From assembly GCA_965363675.1 (NCBI GenBank), contig CBDTTW010000003.1:1-42213 (forward strand): a stretch of 42,213 bases of DNA, in the 5' to 3' direction. The DNA is from an uncultured Rhodothermaceae bacterium (GTDB lineage Bacteria > Bacteroidota > Rhodothermia > Rhodothermales > DASSAV01). The notes under the pieces are model-generated. The model did not search any database. It saw nothing but the letters and a program-made list of their open reading frames with translations, and had not been told where the DNA came from. Position 1 is the stretch's first letter, and every line of letters starts with the position of its first letter. Of the stretch, positions 138-22,401 are shown in pieces. The position numbers and the translations under genes are program-made.

Positions 138-455
138 TTAGGCCTCCTCTTTGCCGTAAACGGGCGGCGCGTACACGTTGAGCGTGCGCAGCGGCAGTTG
201 GCCGGTGCAGCGGATCTCGTGGGGCTCGCCGGCCTCGATGAGCAGCAGCACGCCCGGCCGCAGCGCCGCCTCGCGCCCTCCGACGAGGGCCTTTCCTTCG
301 CCGGCGGCGACGTACAGCCACTGGTCGCCGGGGTGCGTGTTGTCCGGGCCGCCCTCGGCGCCGCCGGGAGCCACCACCATCACGGCCGCCTGCGAGCGCT
401 CGGAGCCGCCGAGCACCTGCCACGCGGCCTCGAACTTCACGTCGAAATGTTGCAT
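138..455 (-). CDS. Cupin domain protein
   Basis: Cupin motifs H-P-G-D-Q-W-L-Y-V-x-x-G-x-G and G-x5-I-x-x-G-x-x-H-x-I. Confidence 0.85.
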   Translation of the reverse strand: MQHFDVKFEAAWQVLGGSERSQAAVMVVAPGGAEGGPDNTHPGDQWLYVAAGEGKALVGGREAALRPGVLLLIEAGEPHEIRCTGQLPLRTLNVYAPPVYGKEEA

Positions 456-490: not shown

Positions 491-1177
491 CTATACGATC
501 AGCTTGTAGCCGACGCCGTGCACCGTCAGAATGTGGCGAGGCTCCGAGGGGTCGGGTTCGAGCTTTTGCCGCAGCTTCATGATGAAGTTGTCGACGGTGC
601 GGGTGGTGGGGCTGCTTTTCTCGTAACCCCAGACTTCTTCGAGGAGCTGGTCGCGGCTGACGACCTGCCCCCGGTACTCGTAGAGCTTTTTGAGCACCTC
701 GAACTCCAGGTGCGAGAAGTACACCGGCTTATCGTCCGAGCGGGCGTCGTAGGCGTAGAGGTCGATGTCGAGGCGGCCGATGCGCAGGCGGTGGCCGGCG
801 GCCTCGCCGTCGTGGTGGGTGCGGCGTACGACGGCCTTGATGCGCGCGAGCAGCTCGCGGATGCCGAACGGCTTGGTCAGGTAGTCGTCGGCGCCCAGCT
901 CCAGGCCGATCACCTTGTCGATCTCCTCGCCCTTGGCCGTCAGGAAGATGATCGGCGTAGCGATGCCGCGCTGGCGGGCGGTGCGGCACACGTCGAAGCC
1001 GGAGAGGCGCGGCAGCATCACGTCGAGCAGCGCCACGTCGAAGGAGCCCGTTTCGAGCGCGTGCAAGCCGGCTTCGCCGTCGCCGGCGATCTCGACGGCA
1101 TAGCCTTCGAACTCGAGGTTGTCCCGCAAGCCCATTTGCATGTTGGGTTCGTCTTCGACTACCAGGATGCGGAGCAT
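491..1177 (-). CDS. OmpR/PhoB-family DNA-binding response regulator
   Basis: Receiver motifs VEDE, LLDVMLP, FLTA, GADDYLTKPF. The winged-helix end reads RTVDNFIMKLRQKLE...TVHGVGY. Confidence 0.95.
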   Translation of the reverse strand: MLRILVVEDEPNMQMGLRDNLEFEGYAVEIAGDGEAGLHALETGSFDVALLDVMLPRLSGFDVCRTARQRGIATPIIFLTAKGEEIDKVIGLELGADDYLTKPFGIRELLARIKAVVRRTHHDGEAAGHRLRIGRLDIDLYAYDARSDDKPVYFSHLEFEVLKKLYEYRGQVVSRDQLLEEVWGYEKSSPTTRTVDNFIMKLRQKLEPDPSEPRHILTVHGVGYKLIV

Positions 1178-1192
1178 AATCGGGGCGCCGGT

Positions 1193-2824
1193 TCAGGAGG
1201 CCGGGGTGGGTTGGAGGAGGATCGGGGCCGGGACGGGGGTTAATATCGGAAATGAAAGCCGGAAACAGCTTCCCGCCCCCATTTTGCTGCGCAGCGTGAC
1301 GGCGCCGCCGTGCGCCTCGACCGTTCTTTTCACAATTGCCAGGCCCAGCCCTGAGCCTTTCGTGTTGTGCACCAGGGCCGAATCGACGCGGTAGAACTGG
1401 TCGAAGATGCGCTGCTGCTCGGACGGCGGGATGCCCGGCCCCTCGTCCTCAACTTCGAGGTACACTTCGGCGGCGGAGACCATGCCGGTCCGGATGGTCA
1501 CCGCCTTACGTTCGGGGCTGTACTTGGCGGCGTTGTCGATGAGGTTGATGAGGCATTCTTCGAGCGCTTCGAGGTCGCCGCGCAGGGCGGGCTCGTCTTC
1601 GGAGAGGCGCGTATGCACGCTCGCGCCCTGGCGTTCGAGGCTTTGCCGGTACGCCTGAAGCACCTTCTCGACGAGGTCGTTGAGATAGACCGGCTCGGCG
1701 GCGTACTGCTTTTTGCCCGCGTCGAGCCGCGAGAAGTTGAGGATGTTGTTGACCAGGCGCGAGAGGCGCTCGGCCTCCGACCGGATGATGCGGTAGTACT
1801 CGGCGCGGCGCGGCTCGGAGGGCACGCGCCCCAGCTCCAGCGACTCGGCGTACATCCGGATGAGCGCCAGAGGCGTGCGCAGCTCGTGCGAGACGTTCGA
1901 GACGAAGTCCGAGCGCACGCGGGCCAGGCGCACGGCCTGCTGCGCGTAGCGGAAGATCTGCCACGTCCCGATGCCGAGCGTAGCCGCGATCAGGCCGATC
2001 AGCAGCAGGCTGCGGTAGAAGCGCCCCTTCACGATACGCTCGATCTCCAGGTTGCGCGAGCGCACGGCGATCACGTAGTCCGGCAGCACCCACACGGCGC
2101 GCTGCCGGATGGTGCGGTCGTAGTCCATCGGGCCGGTCGAGAAGGTGAAGCCTTCCTGGTCGCGCCGGGCTAGGGCCACCGTGATCGTGCCCCGCGAGAC
2201 TTCGCGGAGCTTGGGGATGAGGACCTGGCGGATGAACTCGTCCTCGTCGAGCAAGAGCCCGGCCACGCGCGCCGAAGGGTCGAGCGGCCACGGAGTGAAC
2301 AGCAGCGCCACGCGGGCCCCTTCGGCCTCCTGCTGCATCCAGACGGGGATGATCTTGCGGTAGCCGCTGGCGCGGGTGCGGCCGAGCTGCTCGGCCACGC
2401 GCCGCAGTTGCAGGTTGCCCAGCACCGACGGCCCCACGGGACCTTTCGGCGCGCCCTTCAGGTAAAGCGCGCCTTGGCGGAACGAGGCGTCGCAGAGGAA
2501 GACGCCCAGCAGCCCCTGCTGCCCCTCGACGAACGTCGAGAGCCGGTCCTCGCGGTAGGCGGCGTCGGCCACCGTGAGCGAGCGGTCGATTTCGTTGGCC
2601 CACAGGGCCGTCACGTCCCAGGCGTGCTGGTTCACCGACGAAAGCAGCGTCTCGACCTGATGCTCGTAGACTTCGGCAAGGGCCGACTCGCTCGCGCTCA
2701 GGGTGCGCACCTCGAAGGCGATGTAGGTGAGCAGGAGCACCAGCACGATGGGGCCGATCACGAGGCCGACGCGCCGCAGCGTGGCCGGCGGCTCGGCCGC
2801 AAGGCTGAGAAGGCGGCGTTTCAT
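1193..2824 (-). CDS. Membrane sensor histidine kinase (HisKA + HATPase_c)
   Basis: Two TM segments flank an extracytoplasmic domain. H-box SHELRTPL, N-box NLIDNAAKYS, G1 DEGPGI, F-box, G2 GSGLGL. It ends 15 bp upstream of the response regulator. Confidence 0.95.
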   Translation of the reverse strand: MKRRLLSLAAEPPATLRRVGLVIGPIVLVLLLTYIAFEVRTLSASESALAEVYEHQVETLLSSVNQHAWDVTALWANEIDRSLTVADAAYREDRLSTFVEGQQGLLGVFLCDASFRQGALYLKGAPKGPVGPSVLGNLQLRRVAEQLGRTRASGYRKIIPVWMQQEAEGARVALLFTPWPLDPSARVAGLLLDEDEFIRQVLIPKLREVSRGTITVALARRDQEGFTFSTGPMDYDRTIRQRAVWVLPDYVIAVRSRNLEIERIVKGRFYRSLLLIGLIAATLGIGTWQIFRYAQQAVRLARVRSDFVSNVSHELRTPLALIRMYAESLELGRVPSEPRRAEYYRIIRSEAERLSRLVNNILNFSRLDAGKKQYAAEPVYLNDLVEKVLQAYRQSLERQGASVHTRLSEDEPALRGDLEALEECLINLIDNAAKYSPERKAVTIRTGMVSAAEVYLEVEDEGPGIPPSEQQRIFDQFYRVDSALVHNTKGSGLGLAIVKRTVEAHGGAVTLRSKMGAGSCFRLSFPILTPVPAPILLQPTPAS

Positions 2825-2831
2825 GACGGCC

Positions 2832-3143
2832 TCACAGCATGATGAGCGGCAACGCGCGCACGACGAGGGCTTCCTGCGCGAACCGCTCCAGGAGCGCTTC
2901 GCGGTAAGCGGCCCACCACTCCGGGTCGAGCACGCCGGCCATCACCTCGAACACCACGATGTCGTCGCTGACAGCGGGCGCGCCGTCGGCCTCCTTCCAG
3001 GCCCCCCGCGCCGGAGCGCGTACGTACGATGTGATGCCCCCGAACTGCTCGATCAGCTCGTCGCGCACCCGGGCGAACGCCTCGGGCGGAAACGGCAGCC
3101 CGTCGTTGGACTGCAAGGGAAGCAGAAGCTGCACCAGATGCAT
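2832..3143 (-). CDS. Conserved hypothetical protein (103 aa), possibly PII-like/ferredoxin-like fold
   Basis: The real ORF is the C-terminal part of track ORF 2832..3923, from ATG at 3143: MHLVQLLLPL...FGGITSY...GAW...FAQEALVVR. It fits exactly between its neighbours (32 bp and 7 bp gaps). Confidence 0.75.
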   Translation of the reverse strand: MHLVQLLLPLQSNDGLPFPPEAFARVRDELIEQFGGITSYVRAPARGAWKEADGAPAVSDDIVVFEVMAGVLDPEWWAAYREALLERFAQEALVVRALPLIML

Positions 3144-3175
3144 GTTGCGCGGAGCCGCTTGCGGCGGGCGGCGGC

Positions 3176-4384
3176 CTACACGAAGAACAGAATCATGAAC
3201 AGGATCACGCTCAGGGCCAGACCCGTCATGAACACGGTGTACGAGATCCAGAGCAGTCGGTACTTCTTCGAGAGGACCTGCCCGAGCGAGTAGATGTCGC
3301 TGATCATGTTGTCGTAGAGGCGGTCCCAGTCCAGCATCAGCTCTTTCATGCCGACCGAGAAGTCGGCGGGATCCATGTTGACGAAGTTGCCGAAGAAGAG
3401 GATGTTGGATCTGTTTTGGCGCACGTCTTCCAGGGTGAAGACCTTGTTGGTCACCTTGGGGCGGGCGCTCAGGATGGCGTAGACGATGGCGACGAGGGCC
3501 GTGATGAGCAGCGTCGCCGAGGGCACCATCAGCCAGGGGTTCGTCTGGAGGCGCGACGAGACGAACGAGATGATGATCGACATCAGGATCGCGTTGACGC
3601 TGATCATGATGTTGGCCTTGCTGTCGGCCATGGAACTGAGGCTGACGTGGTTGCGGTAGGTGCTGCGGAACATCGTCTCGACGCCGCGCGAAGGGGCCTC
3701 GCGCAGCACCGGCTCCTCGGCGGGCGGGCCGGGGGCGGCGGCGGCTTGCTCGGCCGCGAGCGTAGCGGCGAGGCGGCGCTGGATGAGGCGCAGGTTTTTG
3801 AGGCGGCGGCCGCCGTACTTCTCGGCGGCGTAGGCCGTCAGAAACGGCGAGCGGTTGAGGAAGTCGAGTTGCAGTTCGGTCCACCCCTGGTCGCTGAAGG
3901 TGCGCCCGAGGTACGTTTCCCACTCCCGGCGCAGGCGCTCCGAGCGCTCGAAGAAGTTCTTCTTGCCGGTGTGGACGAGGTCGGCGTCGTGGAGGACTTC
4001 TTCGGCGGCGTCCTGGGGGGCATGCCCAGAGCGGGTGGCGCGGATGAGGGCCGCGACCGCGTGAATCTGCGGCTCGGGCAGCCCGCGCGAGTGCAGGTAT
4101 GCGTTGGCGATGCGCACCCCGGCTTCCTCGTGGCCGTCGTAGGTCTCCGTGAAGCCGGCGTCATGGAACCACGCGGCCAGCTCGATGAGCGGCAGCTTGC
4201 CCTTGGGCAGCGGCGTCTTCTTGCCGATGCGCACGGCCGCGTCCGCGACCTCCACGGTGTGCTCGTAGGTGTGGTAGAGGATGTCCGGGGGGAGCTTCTC
4301 TTTAAAAAGCGTGTATACGTACGCCGACGCTTCGGGCAGGAGCAGCTCGGGGGTGGGAGGCGTTTCCGTAAGTGCTAAAGCCAT
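3176..4384 (-). CDS. HD-domain phosphohydrolase fused to a Pycsar-type transmembrane effector domain (DUF5706/PycTM-like)
   Basis: N-terminal YHTYEHT...WFHDAG...H...HDAD HD motif. C-terminal ADSKANIMISVNAIL + 2 TM + ILFFGNF + LSKKYRLL + TM, typical of DUF5706/Pycsar effector family proteins. Confidence 0.88.
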   Translation of the reverse strand: MALALTETPPTPELLLPEASAYVYTLFKEKLPPDILYHTYEHTVEVADAAVRIGKKTPLPKGKLPLIELAAWFHDAGFTETYDGHEEAGVRIANAYLHSRGLPEPQIHAVAALIRATRSGHAPQDAAEEVLHDADLVHTGKKNFFERSERLRREWETYLGRTFSDQGWTELQLDFLNRSPFLTAYAAEKYGGRRLKNLRLIQRRLAATLAAEQAAAAPGPPAEEPVLREAPSRGVETMFRSTYRNHVSLSSMADSKANIMISVNAILMSIIISFVSSRLQTNPWLMVPSATLLITALVAIVYAILSARPKVTNKVFTLEDVRQNRSNILFFGNFVNMDPADFSVGMKELMLDWDRLYDNMISDIYSLGQVLSKKYRLLWISYTVFMTGLALSVILFMILFFV

Positions 4385-4462
4385 AGCTGCATGGGCCGTG
4401 AAGGCCGGCGGCGGAAAAGCTCCGCCGGACCGGGGGCGCTTGCGAAGAATAGAGTTTCCGGA

Positions 4463-5380
4463 ATGAGGTTCTCCTGTTTAGCTCCATATTTGCGGTTTTG
4501 TTGCAGCGTCCTGCTGTTTTTAGGGTGGGGCTGCCGGGGCGAGGCCCCGGCGCTGCCTGAAGCGGGCGCCGCCGGGGCGCTCGGCTACGATTTCGGGCGC
4601 CCCGACCGCGTGCTGACGCTGCCGGCGGCGCTCGCGGAAATCTCGGGCGTGGCCTATCTCTCGGCCGACCGGCTCGTGGCCGTCCAGGACGAGGCGGGCA
4701 TCGGCTATGTGGTCAACGCGCAGACGGGCGCCGTGGAGGCGCAGGTGGTCCTCGACGGCGCGGGCGACTTCGAGGACGTGGCGCGCGTGGGCGAGGCGCT
4801 CTACCTGCTCCGCAGCGACGGCCTGCTCGTGGGCAAGTCGCCGGCCGGCGGCGCGGCCGTGCGCCTCCGCACCGGCCTGCGCGACTGCGACGCCGAGGGG
4901 CTCGCGTTTGACCCGCGCGGCCGCCGCTTCGAGATCATTTGTAAGAACAATATCCAAATCTCCGGGAAACGAAGCCGGGTCGCGTATGTGTATTACCCCA
5001 TGGGCGGCGGGCGGCTGGACACGTTGTTCGTGCTGACCGAGGAAGCCATCGACGAGACGCTGGTGCAGGAGGGCAAACGGCGGTGGCAGGAAAGGCTGGA
5101 GCGTCTGCTGGAAGACCCGGTGGAGGGGCGCGGCATTGCGCCTTCGGCCCTGGCGACGCACCCGGCCACGGGGGCGCGCTTCGTGCTCTCCTCCGAGGCC
5201 AAAGCCCTGCTGCGGCTCAGCCCGGCCGGGGCGCTCGAAGTAGTCGAGGCGCTGCCGCCGGTGGTGTTTCCGCAGCCGGAGGGCATGGCCTTCACGCCGG
5301 AAGGGGACCTGTGGATCGCCAACGAAGGCGACGCCGCCGGCCCCCCGACGCTGCTGCTGTTCCGCCGCCGCGCCGAATGA
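4463..5380 (+). CDS. SdiA-regulated (YjiK-like) beta-propeller protein, probable lipoprotein
   Basis: Repeated blade motifs EISGV, QDE, DFEDV, DAEGL, PSAL, QPEGM, ANEG. The hydrophobic signal ends LFLGWG-C if translation starts at ATG 4463. Confidence 0.8.
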   Translation: MRFSCLAPYLRFCCSVLLFLGWGCRGEAPALPEAGAAGALGYDFGRPDRVLTLPAALAEISGVAYLSADRLVAVQDEAGIGYVVNAQTGAVEAQVVLDGAGDFEDVARVGEALYLLRSDGLLVGKSPAGGAAVRLRTGLRDCDAEGLAFDPRGRRFEIICKNNIQISGKRSRVAYVYYPMGGGRLDTLFVLTEEAIDETLVQEGKRRWQERLERLLEDPVEGRGIAPSALATHPATGARFVLSSEAKALLRLSPAGALEVVEALPPVVFPQPEGMAFTPEGDLWIANEGDAAGPPTLLLFRRRAE

Positions 5381-9443: not shown

Positions 9444-11783
9444 ATGATAAACGCAACGTTGAGCATAGAGCCGGCGCTGGAAGCCTGGCGGGCCTTGGCC
9501 CGGCAAGAGGAGTGGGCGTGGGTGGCCCCGTGGCTGGAGGCCACCGTCGAGGCGCACCCCTGGCTGAGCGGCGCGGCGGAACCGGCCGAGGCGCGCCGCC
9601 AGAAAGCGGTGCTTCAGCGGCTGCTGAGCCTGCCGCTGGCGCAGGGGCTGCTCGACAGCACGCCGGGCATCGCCCTGGCGCCGGGCAGCCGCGAGGCCGT
9701 GTACGTTTCGGCGGCGCTCGAACGCTACCTCACGCCCGAGGAGGCGGCCTCCGGCGTGCTCTCCGGGGAGGCGTGGTCCGAGCTGGACGAGGCGCGCCGG
9801 TACGCGCTCGTGTGCCGCCTTGCCGAGGCGGCCTATGGCCTGGAAGGCTGCCCGGCGCTGCGCCCCATCGTCACGCTGAAAGATCCGGAGACCGGCCTTA
9901 ACCATTACTTTGCGGCCGAGCTGGATTTTCGCCTCGTGCGGTTTGCGCCGCAGGGCGCGGCGCCCGCGCTCGACGCGGCGCAGGCCGAGGCGCTGCAAGC
10001 GGCGCTGCAAAACGGCGCCGCCGCTCCGCCGCACCTGGCGCTCGAAGGGTTCCGCGCCGAGGGCATCGAGCTGCTGCGATTCGTGGACATCACCGAGGAG
10101 CATGCGCTTTCGCTGCTCAAGGGCGACCTCCTCGAAGGCGAGCGCGGCGCGCTGGCCCAACTCGTCGGCATCTTCGAGGGGCGCGTTCGAGATTACCTCG
10201 GCAAGCCGGAGGTGTTTTTGGGGTTGGCCGCCACCCAGGGCGATACGCTGCGCCCGCTGCGCACGGCCGCCGGCGCCGCCGATCCGTTCCGCCCCGAGCG
10301 CCTCGACCCGGCGCGCCTCGGCGGCACGTTCATCGGGCGCGCCCTCTCCGAAGGCAAGCCCCAACTCGTCTGCGATCTGGCCGCCGAAGGCTCCGGCGAT
10401 CTCGAACGCGAGCTGGCCGGGGCCGGGGTGCGCGCGGCCATCGTGGCGCCGCTCAACCACCGCAGCAGCCTGACGGGTCTGCTCTACCTGTGGTCGCCCC
10501 GGCCCAACGCCCTGGCCCTGCGCGACCTGGCGCTGCTGGACCGCGTGCTGCCGCTCTGCGCCGCCGCCGTCAACCGCAGCAAGGAGGAACTGAACTACCG
10601 CGTCCAGTCGGTCATCCTCAGCGAGTACACCGCCATACACCCGAGCGTCGAGTGGCGCTTCCGCAAAGCCGCGCTCAACTACATCCGCCGCCACGACCGC
10701 GGCCTGCGCGCCGAGGCCGAGCCGATCGTGTTCGACGAGGTGTACCCGCTCTACGGCGTGGCCGACATCCGCGCCTCGTCCGCGCACCGCAACGAAGCCG
10801 TCAAGCACGACTTGCACGAGCACCTTACCGAGGTCGAGGACATTCTGCAACTGGCGCGCACGGCCAAGCCGCTGCCCATCCTGAACTACCTCGCCGCGCA
10901 GGCCGAGGCCAACCGCCGGATGCTCGAAGACGGCCTTTCCTCGGACGAGGAGGCCGGCATCAAGGACTTCATCAGCCGCCACATCGAGCCGCTGCTCGAC
11001 CACCTGACGACCTTCGGCCCCGCCGTGGCCGAACGCGTCGAGGCGTACCGCGCCGACGCCCAGGTCGAGTCGGGGCGCCTCTACCGGCAGTGCCGCGCCT
11101 TCGACCAGAGCGTTTCGCTGCTCAACCAGACCATCTCGGGCTACCTCGACGCCGAGGAAGCGCGCGCCCAGGCCATGTTCCCGCACTACTTCGAGAAGCG
11201 CCAGACCGACGGCGTCGAGTTCTCGATCTACGTCGGGGCCTCGCTCGTGGAGGACATCCCGTTCAACCCGCTTTACGTGCGCAACCTGCGGCTCTGGCAG
11301 CTCATGGTGATGTGCGGCATCGCCCGGCTTGCCGCGCCGCTCAAAGAGCGCATGGAAATGCCCCTCGAAACGACCCAGCTCGTGATCGCGCACAGCGCGC
11401 CGCTCTCGATCCGCTTCCAGCTTTCGGAGACGCGCTTCGACGTGGACGGCACGCACCACATCCGCTACGAAATCATGAAGCGCCGCCTCGAAAAGGCGCA
11501 GCTCAAGGGGGCCGACGAGCGCCTGACGCAGCCCGGCAAAATCGCCATCGTCTACTCGCAGTTCCGCGAGGCATGGGAGTACGAGGAGTACATCCGCTTC
11601 TTGCAGTCGGCGGGGTATCTGGCGCCGGAAATCGAGGAGGTGGAAATCAGCGATTTACAAGGCATCAGCGGCCTGAAGGCGCTCCGGGTGAACGTGCTCC
11701 TGGAGTCCGGCGCGGGCGGCGACGGCCTTTCCTCGGAGGTCATCGAACGCGCGGTGGCCGCCATGCCGCTCGAACCATTCTAA
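9444..11783 (+). CDS. GAF-domain protein with a C-terminal divergent class III nucleotide-cyclase-like domain
   Basis: GAF signature RAAIVAPL...LTGLLYL. The C-terminal half has ADIRASS, LLNQTISGYLD, EKRQTDG, FDVDG...RLEK and PGKIAIV in the order of class III cyclase motifs. The GAF call is firm; the cyclase call is inference. Confidence 0.8.
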   Translation: MINATLSIEPALEAWRALARQEEWAWVAPWLEATVEAHPWLSGAAEPAEARRQKAVLQRLLSLPLAQGLLDSTPGIALAPGSREAVYVSAALERYLTPEEAASGVLSGEAWSELDEARRYALVCRLAEAAYGLEGCPALRPIVTLKDPETGLNHYFAAELDFRLVRFAPQGAAPALDAAQAEALQAALQNGAAAPPHLALEGFRAEGIELLRFVDITEEHALSLLKGDLLEGERGALAQLVGIFEGRVRDYLGKPEVFLGLAATQGDTLRPLRTAAGAADPFRPERLDPARLGGTFIGRALSEGKPQLVCDLAAEGSGDLERELAGAGVRAAIVAPLNHRSSLTGLLYLWSPRPNALALRDLALLDRVLPLCAAAVNRSKEELNYRVQSVILSEYTAIHPSVEWRFRKAALNYIRRHDRGLRAEAEPIVFDEVYPLYGVADIRASSAHRNEAVKHDLHEHLTEVEDILQLARTAKPLPILNYLAAQAEANRRMLEDGLSSDEEAGIKDFISRHIEPLLDHLTTFGPAVAERVEAYRADAQVESGRLYRQCRAFDQSVSLLNQTISGYLDAEEARAQAMFPHYFEKRQTDGVEFSIYVGASLVEDIPFNPLYVRNLRLWQLMVMCGIARLAAPLKERMEMPLETTQLVIAHSAPLSIRFQLSETRFDVDGTHHIRYEIMKRRLEKAQLKGADERLTQPGKIAIVYSQFREAWEYEEYIRFLQSAGYLAPEIEEVEISDLQGISGLKALRVNVLLESGAGGDGLSSEVIERAVAAMPLEPF

Positions 11784-20153: not shown

Positions 20154-22082
20154 TCACTGCACCAGGCGCCATAGCTCGCGGTACTGGGCATTCTGCGGCG
20201 CCAGCTCCAACAGGCGCCTGGCATGGGGGCGAGCCTCCTGTTTGCGCCCGGTGTTCAGGTACAGCGAGGCGAGGTTCGCCAGCGTCTGCTCCTCGTCCGG
20301 GTTGAGGCCGAGGGCCTGCCGGAAGTCCATGCGCGCCGCGTCGAGGTCGCCGCTGAGCGCCCGGAGGTAGCCGCGGTCGTTGTAGGCCAGCCAGAACTTG
20401 GGGTTGAGCGCCAGGATTTCGTTTTGCAAGGCCAGCGCGCGCTCGGGCTCGCGGCGGCCGGCGTAGGCGTAGGCCAGGCGGCTCTTGAAGCGCAAGTGCT
20501 GCGGCGCCCCGGCGGCGGCGGCCTCCAGCCACGGAACGGCCCCGGCGGCGTCGCCCTGCTTCAGGAACGCCTCGCCGATGCGATAGCGCGTCCAGGGCTG
20601 AAGGCGTTCCGGCGACGCCGTGGCGGCGTACGACGTAATGGCTCGGTAGTCGCCCTGCAAAAACCACAGGCGCACCCACGAGTCGGGAAGCGAGGCCCGG
20701 GAGGCTTCCTGGCGCCGGGCGCGTTCGAGGTAGACGGCCGCCGAGTCGAGGTAGTAGGCTTTGGGCTTGAACTGCTCGTAGTAGGTCAGGTAGCCGTCGG
20801 CCATGTCCTTGGCGGTAGGCGCCTTGTTGATGAGGCTTGCCATGCCGTAGAACTTCTGAAGCGCCGGCGTGGCCTCGGGCGGCGCCTGGCGGTCGGGCTT
20901 GCGGATGTAGTGGTCGGTGATCTGGACGTGGGGGATGTCCGACGAGCCCGAGGTGGGCATGTGGCAGGCAAAACAGTTGTCGCCGTTGCGGGCGCGCACG
21001 GCCGGCTCCTCGGCGCACACATCGCCGCGCGGAGGCGTGTGGCAGGTGCGGCACGGTTGGTTGTAGGCGTCCGCGCCGCGCTGCTTGACGCTTACGTGCG
21101 GGTCGTGGCAGGTGATGCACGTCATGGCTCCGGCGGCGCCCTCCCTGGCCCACGTCGCTTTGAAGCAGGGGCTCATCTTGAGGCGGTCCGGGTGCGAGGC
21201 CATGATGAACTGGCGCACGCTGTCGGCGTCGCGGGGCCAGTACACGTTCGTGAAAGCGTCCAGATTGCCGCCCGGCCGGAAGTCCAGGAAGGTCTTGTCG
21301 TCGGCGAGCACGGCCGCGCCCTGCATATGGCAGCGCTGGCAGATGTCGAACTGCCGCTCGACGGGCAGCCGCCGGGGGTTGACGATGGAGTAGTCCGGAG
21401 CCTGCGACGTATCGACGATCTCGCCGGCGCCTTTCTCGCGCACGTGCAGCGCGCCCGGCCCGTGGCAGCTCTCGCAGTCGATGCCGTTAGGGATGTGCGT
21501 AAACCGGTTCTCCGAGCCGGCCACATAGGTAGGGCGCGCGTTGTGGCATGTCATGCACTCCAGTTGGATCGCGCGGTCGAAGCGGGTGTTGTTGCCGGCG
21601 TGAAAGCCGGGCGGCAAGTCCCACCGCTGCTTCTGCACGTACCACGTCATCGGGATCTGGTAGACGTAGCCGTTTACGTCGTACATGTGGGAGTTGGTAT
21701 GTTGCCCCGAGCCGACGATGTAGTCGATGCGCTCGGTGCGCGCGTGCACGGTGTCGCGGCCGCTGAGGCGGTATTCCTTGACGAACAGCGCCTCGCCCCG
21801 GCGGAACGGCTGGTAGTAGAGGTCCGAGGCGGCGTCGTAGACGGGCGCGGCGCCGTCCCACCGGGCGTCGCTGTTGGAGAACGTGGCGCGTTTGAACGAG
21901 CGGCCCATTTCGGACTGCACATAACTCGCGTACTTGTCCGGGTGGCACCCGCGGCACGCCTCCTTGCCCACGAACTCTACGCTCAGGTCCATGTTGCGGT
22001 AGCGGGGAGCCTCGGCGTCGGGCTGCGGCCGGTTGGTGCAGGCCGCCAGCAAGAGCAGCAAGACGAAAGGAAGACGCTTCAT
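20154..22082 (-). CDS. Multiheme cytochrome c lipoprotein with C-terminal TPR repeats
   Basis: Lipobox LLAA-C after ATG 22082. Seven CxxCH motifs (CRGCH, CMTCH, CESCH, CQRCH, CITCH, CRTCH, CFACH). TPR repeats (AYNDRGYL, LANLASLY). Confidence 0.9.
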   Translation of the reverse strand: MKRLPFVLLLLLAACTNRPQPDAEAPRYRNMDLSVEFVGKEACRGCHPDKYASYVQSEMGRSFKRATFSNSDARWDGAAPVYDAASDLYYQPFRRGEALFVKEYRLSGRDTVHARTERIDYIVGSGQHTNSHMYDVNGYVYQIPMTWYVQKQRWDLPPGFHAGNNTRFDRAIQLECMTCHNARPTYVAGSENRFTHIPNGIDCESCHGPGALHVREKGAGEIVDTSQAPDYSIVNPRRLPVERQFDICQRCHMQGAAVLADDKTFLDFRPGGNLDAFTNVYWPRDADSVRQFIMASHPDRLKMSPCFKATWAREGAAGAMTCITCHDPHVSVKQRGADAYNQPCRTCHTPPRGDVCAEEPAVRARNGDNCFACHMPTSGSSDIPHVQITDHYIRKPDRQAPPEATPALQKFYGMASLINKAPTAKDMADGYLTYYEQFKPKAYYLDSAAVYLERARRQEASRASLPDSWVRLWFLQGDYRAITSYAATASPERLQPWTRYRIGEAFLKQGDAAGAVPWLEAAAAGAPQHLRFKSRLAYAYAGRREPERALALQNEILALNPKFWLAYNDRGYLRALSGDLDAARMDFRQALGLNPDEEQTLANLASLYLNTGRKQEARPHARRLLELAPQNAQYRELWRLVQ

Positions 22083-22401
22083 CGGGCAAAGTCTATCGGC
22101 AGGCGCAGCAGCGCGCCGCGCAGCTAAAAATAACCACCGGCGCGGCCCTTCGGCGGCGCAAAAATGCGGCGCATCCTGGCTCCGGCGCCTCCGGGACGCC
22201 CGGCGGAAAATTTTTCCGCGTCCGCTGCGAAAAATGAAAGACGCCGCGTTCCCTTTTTCTAGCCGCGCGCCCACCGGCAGGAGCGCAGCGGCACGCTTCG
22301 GGCGTTTTGTTTGAAGTTTTGGAGAACGGATTGGAAGTTGCACCCCGCCGCCGATACCCCTGAAGCATCCCCCGACGCCTGAGCCCACTCTCTGCTGGAA
22401 C

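Follow-up and report, generated by a model that had tools for sequence, protein, structure and literature searches.

What does a Pycsar-type membrane module do when it is joined to an HD phosphohydrolase instead of standing beside a cyclase? The question is raised by a 42,213-nucleotide (nt) stretch of DNA from an uncultured Rhodothermaceae bacterium (GenBank assembly GCA_965363675.1, contig CBDTTW010000003.1, positions 1 to 42,213), referred to below as the window. Its gene P0001 encodes such a fusion, here called HD-PycTM. We find that P0001 is an inner-membrane protein in which a flexible linker connects a YpgQ/YedJ-type HD phosphohydrolase to a PycTM three-helix module. Its family is large, evolves slowly, and passes vertically, with the chromosome, in Bacteroidota, Rhodothermales, and Ignavibacteria; P0001 is not part of a Pycsar system. 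As to its role, we tentatively favor, at somewhat less than an even chance, a housekeeping, self-terminating, nucleotide-responsive membrane module serving phosphate, polyphosphate, or envelope functions.

The two halves of HD-PycTM

P0001 has a GC content at third codon positions (GC3) of 0.91, as is usual for real genes of the window with its ~68% G+C. Pfam recognizes an HD domain (PF01966) at residues 39-139 (E 2.9e-8, 34.4 bits against a cut-off of 22) and PycTM (PF18967, the former DUF5706) at residues 278-388 (E 3.1e-29, 102 bits against a cut-off of 27.2). The PycTM models of PADLOC match residues 246-400 (best E 2.8e-16), and its CBASS '2TM effector' models also match, over residues ~240-400 (best E 9.4e-12); a PDB sequence search with P0001 alone returned no match at E ≤ 1. 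An AlphaFold2 model built on an 82-sequence alignment has a mean pLDDT of 92 and shows two well-folded halves. The linker between them is its sole disordered part, with pLDDT below 50 at residues 220-226, and varies in length and sequence among family members (alignment of 28). Three hydrophobic segments are centered at residues 268, 296, and 393, and the HD half has none. A first-pass annotation, made from the sequence alone, had described the gene as a DUF5706/PycTM effector fused to an intact HD domain; the two Pfam matches and the conserved metal residues described next confirm that this fusion is real. Scanning positions 2600-4700 for promoters and terminators gave nothing informative.

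What kind of HD protein is the N-terminal half? H38, H74, and D133 are the same in every sequence of two family alignments (28 and 82 members), and D75, H42, and H85 in nearly every one. Selection has thus kept the H...HD...D metal site, made up of the first three residues and D75, intact. The metal motif (H38/H74-D75/D133), the helical model, and matches to known folds at Z up to 17.5 place this half in the HD superfamily. A profile search of the PDB ranked 2pq7 best (E 3.5e-8), followed by 3dto, YedJ (3gw7), and 3djb. Foldseek put Bacillus subtilis YpgQ (5dqw/5dqv) first (E 8e-4, TM-score 0.70 on the target), then structural-genomics HD proteins, then phosphodiesterases at target TM-scores of ~0.4. 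VIA-align, run against all cluster representatives, scored 2pq7 at Z 17.5, YpgQ at 16.9, and YedJ at 13.7; class I cyclic nucleoside monophosphate (cNMP) phosphodiesterases reached Z 15-16.5 (root-mean-square deviation ~3.2-3.4 Å over ~190-205 aligned residues), and alarmone hydrolases and PPX/GppA reached Z ~10.

By its closest sequence and fold relatives, the HD half thus falls in a YpgQ/YedJ-like subgroup, and its likeness to cNMP phosphodiesterases appears, from the model, to be one of fold only. The subgroup (2pq7, 3dto, 3gw7, 3djb, 3b57, 2pjq, 2qgs) has the same four-residue mononuclear H..HD..D site as P0001, but its members are soluble, stand-alone proteins of ~190-240 amino acids (aa) with only 14-25% identity to the HD half. 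The class I phosphodiesterases (PDE1-PDE10, RhoPDE) share the HD-superfamily catalytic core but are ~100 residues larger. YpgQ is described, in the accessible part of PMC8177086, as a Mn-dependent (deoxy)nucleoside triphosphate ((d)NTP) pyrophosphohydrolase. Since activity within the subgroup is established for YpgQ alone, this kinship predicts little about the substrate of P0001. A nucleotide phosphohydrolase activity is plausible; that the domain degrades a cyclic nucleotide, as the signal-degrading role given to it in the first-pass annotation would suggest, may or may not hold, the nearest relatives being YpgQ/YedJ-type hydrolases and not cyclic-nucleotide phosphodiesterases.

The C-terminal module shares its ancestry with the '3TM' effectors of Pycsar and Pucsar systems, which cNMPs activate. 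In its model, a long helix (residues 233-278) combines an amphipathic part with the first transmembrane helix (TM1), TM2 spans residues 283-307, and a segment of ~70 residues leads to a second long helix (353-401) that ends in TM3. With no signal peptide, the simplest topology would place the HD domain in the cytoplasm and the loop at 278-284 and the C-terminus outside. Residues 306-376, the ~70-residue segment with the invariant LFFGNF and KKY motifs, would then be cytoplasmic. Across 82 members, R233, T237, H246, D254, K256, P288, and P309 are invariant, as are FFG 330-332, Y357, D363, and K374. K256 and K374 never vary, and P309 hardly does, in the P0001 clade and in cyclase-adjacent Pycsar-type homologs alike. 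EcPucTM, a PycTM relative, is reported in the accessible text of bioRxiv 10.64898/2026.08.12.744502 to form a cylindrical hexamer that acts with a cyclase producing cyclic GMP (cGMP); the same text names the PF18967 family 'pJV1-spdB3 family 3TM'.

Does the module resemble any protein of solved structure? Folded alone it reached a pLDDT of 88. Foldseek found nothing in the PDB at E ≤ 1e-3 for this domain-only model, and the best VIA-align scores, at Z 10, were to designed bundles and BAR domains, so that no convincing solved relative emerged; the EcPucTM structure did not appear among the matches from the PDB copy used. A likeness to the VTC polyphosphate channel was considered and set aside for want of support. 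The Z of 9.0-9.3 obtained with whole P0001 fell to 8.3 and 7.7 with the domain-only model, among generic helical matches (BAR domains, vinculin, designed bundles); Foldseek finds nothing, and comparison of the PycTM alignment with DUF202 by hhalign gave a probability of 0.2%, which leaves the likeness without profile support.

A family inherited with the chromosome

How common is the fusion? Among 8000 scored candidates from a large protein collection, 2196 relatives of P0001 were detected at E ≤ 1e-3. The best 120 of these 2196, of 302-468 aa, all carry PF18967, and 105 carry PF01966 as well. The fusion, which had first been taken as unusual, is therefore the common form of the family and not a one-off. 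Nor is the architecture itself new, since public records of it already exist, variously titled ('predicted metal-dependent HD superfamily phosphohydrolase', 'DUF5706 domain-containing protein', 'Pycsar system effector family protein'). Species-representative genomes hold at least 558 relatives (558 of 599 pattern-matched stretches among the matches listed). Eighty loci were kept for comparison, from Rhodothermales, Ignavibacteria, Cytophagales (Pontibacter, Hymenobacter, Rufibacter, Spirosoma), Chitinophagales/Saprospiraceae, and Flavobacteriales.

A sample of 201 genomes, at least 90% complete and evenly drawn from the phylum, shows how the family is inherited. PF18967 occurs in 82 of them, and its presence is uniform within genera (15/15, 8/8, 4/4, 3/3). 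By hand count, ~50 of the strong matches lie in frames of 362-508 aa, the size of the fusion, and ~30 in frames of 188-289 aa. Within the window's own order, 29 of 41 genomes have a match. Nine, including the window's genome, carry the full-length fusion at 52-71% identity; most other matches are stand-alone PycTM genes, 42-59% identical to P0001 residues ~231-400, and several genomes carry both forms. The window's genome holds a single copy of the P0001 family, which is mostly single-copy elsewhere too. Identity between relatives of different classes is 40-70%, from which we infer that the family evolves slowly. None of 50,697 phage records matches P0001, and the matches among 72,556 plasmid records number six, all of them large non-mobilizable Bacteroidota replicons.

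The stand-alone PycTM genes of Rhodothermales (L020, L025, L019; L denotes a compared locus) have low-complexity Lys-rich N-terminal tails in the place that the HD domain and linker occupy in fused proteins. Such genes are often followed by a gene for a metallo-beta-lactamase-fold protein or a His_Phos_1 gene.

Does P0001 belong to a Pycsar system? Such systems, as described in the accessible parts of PMC11224242, PMC13069673, and bioRxiv 10.64898/2026.08.12.744502, consist of a PycC cyclase and a transmembrane or TIR effector and act by abortive infection. A scan of 30 window proteins turned up no PF00211 cyclase, nor did a search of the large flanking proteins at E up to 5, and the single PF00211 match of the genome sits on another contig, C4. 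PADLOC, applied to 15 neighboring proteins, detected no defense system and no CBASS component, only generic receiver-domain and kinase-domain matches. For contrast, loci that matched PF18967 weakly were taken from the phylum sample (11, of which 10 were scanned). At three of these loci a small PycTM protein of 161-174 aa directly adjoins a Guanylate_cyc protein, forming canonical Pycsar-type pairs. Two of the pairs (L116 and L119) come from the window's own order, and the cyclase of the third (L117) carries TPR repeats. Cyclase-linked PycTM proteins score 37-53 bits against PF18967 versus 100-134 for the conserved clade.

P0001 is thus not part of a Pycsar system, having neither an adjacent cyclase nor a patchy or mobile distribution. 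The likeness lies in the C-terminal module of ~170 residues with three membrane helices, homologous to that of the Pycsar/Pucsar effectors, and in K256, K374, P309, and the LFFG region, which the cyclase-adjacent homologs share. Unlike those effectors, P0001 has an N-terminal HD enzyme, no cyclase beside it, vertical inheritance, phosphate and envelope neighbors, and higher Pfam scores. The accessible text of the bioRxiv preprint on Pycsar/Pucsar effectors makes no mention of 'HD domain'. The first-pass annotation had held that canonical Pycsar effectors are small, stand-alone, and placed beside a cyclase, that this gene differs from them and is unlikely to be a suicide effector, and that defense-finding tools may mislabel it. 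The three pairs fit its picture of the canonical form. Conservation within lineages, a mostly single-copy state, and the lack of any phage-record match agree with the second point, and the risk of mislabeling is real, given the PADLOC PycTM and 2TM matches and the name 'Pycsar system effector family protein' in public records.

Neighbors of HD-PycTM and candidate signal makers

Which genes travel with HD-PycTM? The conserved set, back to back with it, comprises the beta-propeller, the Metallophos-Omp85 protein, and the GAF protein, and elsewhere also PPK1, a SixA-like phosphatase, PAP2, and DUF2652 (Table 1). When the neighbors in 14 loci of the same order were compared with the window's genes, Metallophos-Omp85 was adjacent in 11; the beta-propeller was present in seven, the GAF protein in two, and a kinase in one. 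Neighbor clustering at the 80 loci of the phylum, many of which end at contig ends so that the counts are lower bounds, found Metallophos-Omp85 at 40, PPK1 at 26, the beta-propeller at 18, a SixA-like His_Phos_1 phosphatase at 16, DUF6268 at 14, DUF2652 at 10, and PAP2 and the GAF protein at nine each. The linkage to Metallophos-Omp85 and to PPK1, which the first-pass annotation had missed, is the strongest signal of all.

Table 1. Positions of P0001, its parts and its neighbors in the window, and of two kinds of gene pair at compared loci (L, locus; G, genome)
Feature	Position	Strand	Basis or remark
Cupin	138..455	-	35-nt gap after regulator
OmpR/PhoB-type response regulator	491..1177	-	Pfam Response_reg and Trans_reg_C; 15-nt gap after kinase
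Sensor histidine kinase	1193..2824	-	Pfam HisKA and HATPase_c; 7-nt gap after P0123
Small open reading frame (ORF) P0123, 103 aa	2832..3143	-	Read from sequence; 32-nt gap after P0001
HD-PycTM gene P0001, 402 aa	3176..4384	-	ORF with ATG start, Pfam, PADLOC, AlphaFold2
PycTM (PF18967) module, residues 233-402	3179..3688	-	Pfam, PADLOC, hydropathy, models
Ala/Pro-rich flexible linker, residues 217-232	3689..3736	-	Low pLDDT, family variation
HD phosphohydrolase domain, residues 12-216, all helical, predicted cytoplasmic	3737..4351	-	Alignments, PDB profile, Foldseek, VIA-align
Beta-propeller, SdiA-regulated/phytase-like, divergent from P0001	4391..5380	+	Pfam PF06977, PF13449
Metallophos (N-terminal) and Omp85-type beta-barrel (C-terminal) outer-membrane protein, 1302 aa	5423..9331	+	Pfam Metallophos; NCBIfam Omp85_fam, residues 1151-1302
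GAF protein, 779 aa, with highly conserved ~385-aa C-terminal domain without family match	9444..11783	+	Pfam GAF only
DUF2652 beside HD-PycTM	L038:10279-11442; L032:10214-11314; eight further loci	convergent	
Pycsar-like pairs	L116:3860-5045 (G026); L119:3426-4685 (G034); L117:4119-6526 (G150)		PF18967 and Guanylate_cyc

Metallophos-Omp85 is the most conserved partner of P0001. It lies next door in six of eight close relatives, and it occurs in 87 of the 201 sampled genomes. Comparison by hand gave 72 genomes with both PycTM and Metallophos-Omp85, 10 with PycTM only, 15 with Metallophos-Omp85 only, and 104 with neither, related genomes not being independent samples and the pattern spanning classes. 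In the 78 genomes with a strong PycTM match, the two genes are at most 5 kilobases (kb) apart in 50, 5-20 kb apart in eight, and further apart on the same contig in three; eight have Metallophos-Omp85 on another contig, and nine have no entry for it. A homolog of the 1302-aa protein matches Pfam Omp85. The window's genome also contains a shorter Metallophos-Omp85 paralog (G000:C77:3068-5791), a 977-aa frame 46% identical over residues 388-1302 and apparently without the Metallophos part.

PPK1 is tied to the module in another way. A natural fusion from Longimicrobium, P0124 (944 aa), consists of PPK1 followed by a PycTM module (residues 758-928) that is 45% identical to P0001. The two PPK1 genes of the window's genome are on contigs C4 and C16, neither of them at the P0001 locus. 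The annotated starts of the divergent P0001 (4384) and propeller (4391) genes are only 6 nt apart. For the propeller, a start at the second Met (residue 25) is more likely, and would give a lipoprotein-like signal ('...FLGWGC') and a probable lipoprotein. With the start there, in the segment 4391-4465, the two genes could share a promoter region of ~78 nt between them.

What could make a signal for HD-PycTM? The C-terminal family of the GAF protein (alignment A8) occurs in 30 of the 201 genomes, all of them PycTM-positive. Comparison of these 30 by hand placed the GAF and PycTM genes within 2 kb of each other in 12, typically tail to tail, and within 15 kb in 19. An ESM Atlas search with the GAF protein returned 'hypothetical/YeeD' clusters only. 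Alignment A8 contains an invariant Asp (D47) in 'VYPLYGAxDIRxSS', then after ~130 residues 'YKTDG', and later 'FDVDG..N.R.E'. We take these motifs to recall those of class III cyclases, as a lead only, and on such sequence features the GAF protein could be a very divergent class III cyclase.

The second candidate is DUF2652, described in the accessible part of PMC4886424 as a predicted class III cyclase-like family. A protein of this family (~370 aa, consensus FIPDISGFT...EGDA) stands convergent beside HD-PycTM at 10 of the 80 loci; in the genomes of L038 and L044 the adjoining DUF2652 gene is the sole copy. As a general partner DUF2652 was rejected on its adjacency at only 10 of 80 loci and in two of 11 two-gene genomes and on the failure to find it in the window's genome.

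Downstream of P0001 the genes are packed on the same strand, and the run as a whole is plausibly an operon. P0123 has no Pfam family and no tblastn match in the other loci compared; it may be lineage-specific or no gene at all. The kinase has PnpS and PhoR as its best NCBIfam matches, and the regulator YycF, RpaB, MtrA, and PhoB, all below cut-off. These PhoR/PhoB-like matches would fit a phosphate theme, and prove nothing. The closest relative of P0001 (L004, 71% identity) has no kinase within 1.5 kb downstream, and homologs of the kinase or regulator were found in only six of the compared loci: L016 and L029 (the same place twice), L052, L077, L080, and L098. The two-component system was therefore rejected as a conserved partner of HD-PycTM, being present in a handful of loci and not in the closest relative, and beside P0001 it is a chance local feature of the window's genome. 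The first-pass annotation had the gene heading an operon with this system: the tight same-strand run stands, and the arrangement is not conserved in relatives. Further along the window, 20154-22388 (minus strand) encodes a 744-aa protein with paired CXXCH motifs of a multiheme cytochrome c (c7/c554-like) and C-terminal TPR repeats.

What HD-PycTM may do

How would the housekeeping module proposed above operate? As in defense, the PycTM part would form oligomers in the membrane, and a small phosphorylated nucleotide bound to the cytoplasmic face would set the state of the assembly. Here the assembly would take part in the everyday regulation of phosphate, polyphosphate, and envelope functions. 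By hydrolyzing that nucleotide or its precursor, the HD domain would make the response end itself, and the cell would not be killed. The likeliest source of the signal would be the co-inherited GAF protein or, in other genomes, DUF2652, and the downstream two-component system would be a lineage-specific addition. We favor housekeeping over phage defense because the family is vertically inherited and has phosphate and cell-envelope neighbors. A link to nucleotide signaling is suggested because K256 and K374 are shared with cyclase-adjacent homologs, PucTM is reported to work with a cGMP-producing cyclase, the HD fold matches phosphodiesterases, and DUF2652 is cyclase-like.

A more specific version can be drawn, which we regard as possible and on balance unlikely. 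HD-PycTM would both receive and terminate the signal in a nucleotide second-messenger circuit that is inherited vertically in the Bacteroidota group and has not been described before: the GAF protein, as a cryptic GAF-regulated cyclase, or DUF2652 would make the signal, the PycTM oligomer would respond at the inner membrane, and polyphosphate synthesis by PPK1 would be coupled to the Metallophos-Omp85 phosphoesterase of the outer membrane. The Pycsar/Pucsar suicide effectors would then be offshoots that had lost the HD 'off switch'.

Several observations weigh against a nucleotide-responsive module, and most concern the maker of the signal. Pfam at E up to 5 finds GAF and no cyclase domain in the GAF protein; a PDB profile search with the whole protein finds GAF domains only, and with the C-terminal part alone nothing relevant; and hhalign of the C-terminal domain against DUF2652 gives a probability of 0.1%. 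The 'GAF-cyclase' of the first-pass annotation therefore finds no backing in these profile comparisons. DUF2652 and PycTM occur together in 11 sampled genomes and adjoin in only two of them; a search whose positive control worked did not find DUF2652 in the window's genome, and the only PF00211 cyclase of that genome lies away from the locus. The proposed breaker raises doubts of its own: the closest HD relatives by profile and by Foldseek are the (d)NTP hydrolase YpgQ and uncharacterized YedJ-like proteins, and class I phosphodiesterases reach only E ~0.17 in the same profile search, which is not significant. Finally, one family of the same class has a stand-alone PycTM, without an HD domain, in 28 of 33 genomes and Metallophos-Omp85 in 27 of 33, with the GAF protein in none of the 33 and DUF2652 in two. 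The core PycTM/Metallophos-Omp85 pair thus works without the proposed signal maker and breaker.

Could the module do without a ligand? PycTM might serve as a platform or conduit in the inner membrane, holding cytoplasmic phosphate enzymes there opposite Metallophos-Omp85. P0001 would hold HD in this way and the Longimicrobium fusion PPK1; the stand-alone forms would hold no enzyme. HD itself would be a metabolic hydrolase that splits phosphoanhydrides (NTP, polyphosphate, or alarmones) as phosphate and polyphosphate are turned over. This explanation, the main rival, we rate a serious possibility, doubtful as it is. It accounts well for the joining of the same C-terminal module to different N-terminal enzymes, with PPK1 in place of HD, for the family in which stand-alone PycTM and Metallophos-Omp85 persist without HD or the GAF protein, and for YpgQ and YedJ as the closest kin of the HD half. 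The presence of PPK1, His_Phos_1, PAP2, and the phytase-like propeller among the neighbors is in keeping with it, as is the PhoR/PhoB-like two-component system downstream in the window, at NCBIfam scores below cut-off. It explains less readily why the cytoplasmic face of PycTM is so strongly conserved, with K256 and K374 common to cNMP-dependent effectors, which suggests more than an anchor. The nesting of the GAF protein within PycTM-positive genomes and the occurrence of cyclase-like DUF2652 neighbors also sit poorly with a ligand-free platform, and the resemblance to the VTC polyphosphate channel did not hold. A related and improbable alternative is turnover of envelope lipid phosphates (e.g., recycling of polyprenyl or lipid A phosphate) coupled to the Omp85-type protein, the polyphosphate link being incidental. 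PAP2 phosphatases (9/80 loci), DUF6268 (14/80), and a partner that is an Omp85-type outer-membrane protein with a Metallophos domain would suit such a role. P0001 itself, however, shows no lipid-handling domain, its ArnT match (Z 8.6-10.5) is within the generic helical range, and PPK1 (26/80 loci) together with the PPK1-PycTM fusion points to soluble phosphoanhydrides.

That P0001 is after all a genuine abortive-infection effector, an orphan Pycsar/CBASS membrane toxin carrying its own antidote domain, we consider very improbable. The significant PADLOC PycTM and CBASS 2TM matches, and the true Pycsar-like pairs of the same order (L116, L119), are what would be expected of one. The neighboring genes scanned, however, include no PF00211 cyclase or defense-family protein, and the cyclase-linked homologs form a separate low-scoring group (37-53 versus 100-134 bits). 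A family that is uniform within genera, mostly single-copy, and slowly evolving (40-70% identity across classes), with no phage-record match and almost no plasmid-record match, does not behave as a defense gene would.

No paper on the function or context of HD-PycTM was found, and none for 'DUF5706' or for PycTM with 'HD domain', supplements lying outside the search. Likewise, none was found for Omp85 with 'calcineurin-like', and Omp85/metallophosphoesterase searches gave nothing relevant. Judged by titles and the opening of abstracts, the papers listed as mentioning PycTM deal with defense or with the biology of cyclic CMP and cyclic UMP (cCMP/cUMP), bar one genome description.

What, then, does the housekeeping reading of HD-PycTM mean for this protein family? 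PF18967 is now annotated as a 'Pycsar effector', yet most of its members in the phylum, and the best-scoring ones, are encoded by conserved genes of the chromosome that are linked to genes for phosphate, polyphosphate, and envelope functions. Defense-finding pipelines and annotation will consequently over-call Pycsar in Bacteroidota, Rhodothermales, and Ignavibacteria. The HD-PycTM family offers a non-lethal, genetically tractable setting for the ligand and gating of the 3TM module. Its conserved pairing with the unstudied Metallophos-Omp85 protein, with PPK1, and with the GAF protein suggests that a major phylum has a phosphate or signaling module across its envelope that has so far gone undescribed, and possibly that a phage-defense effector had a housekeeping origin.

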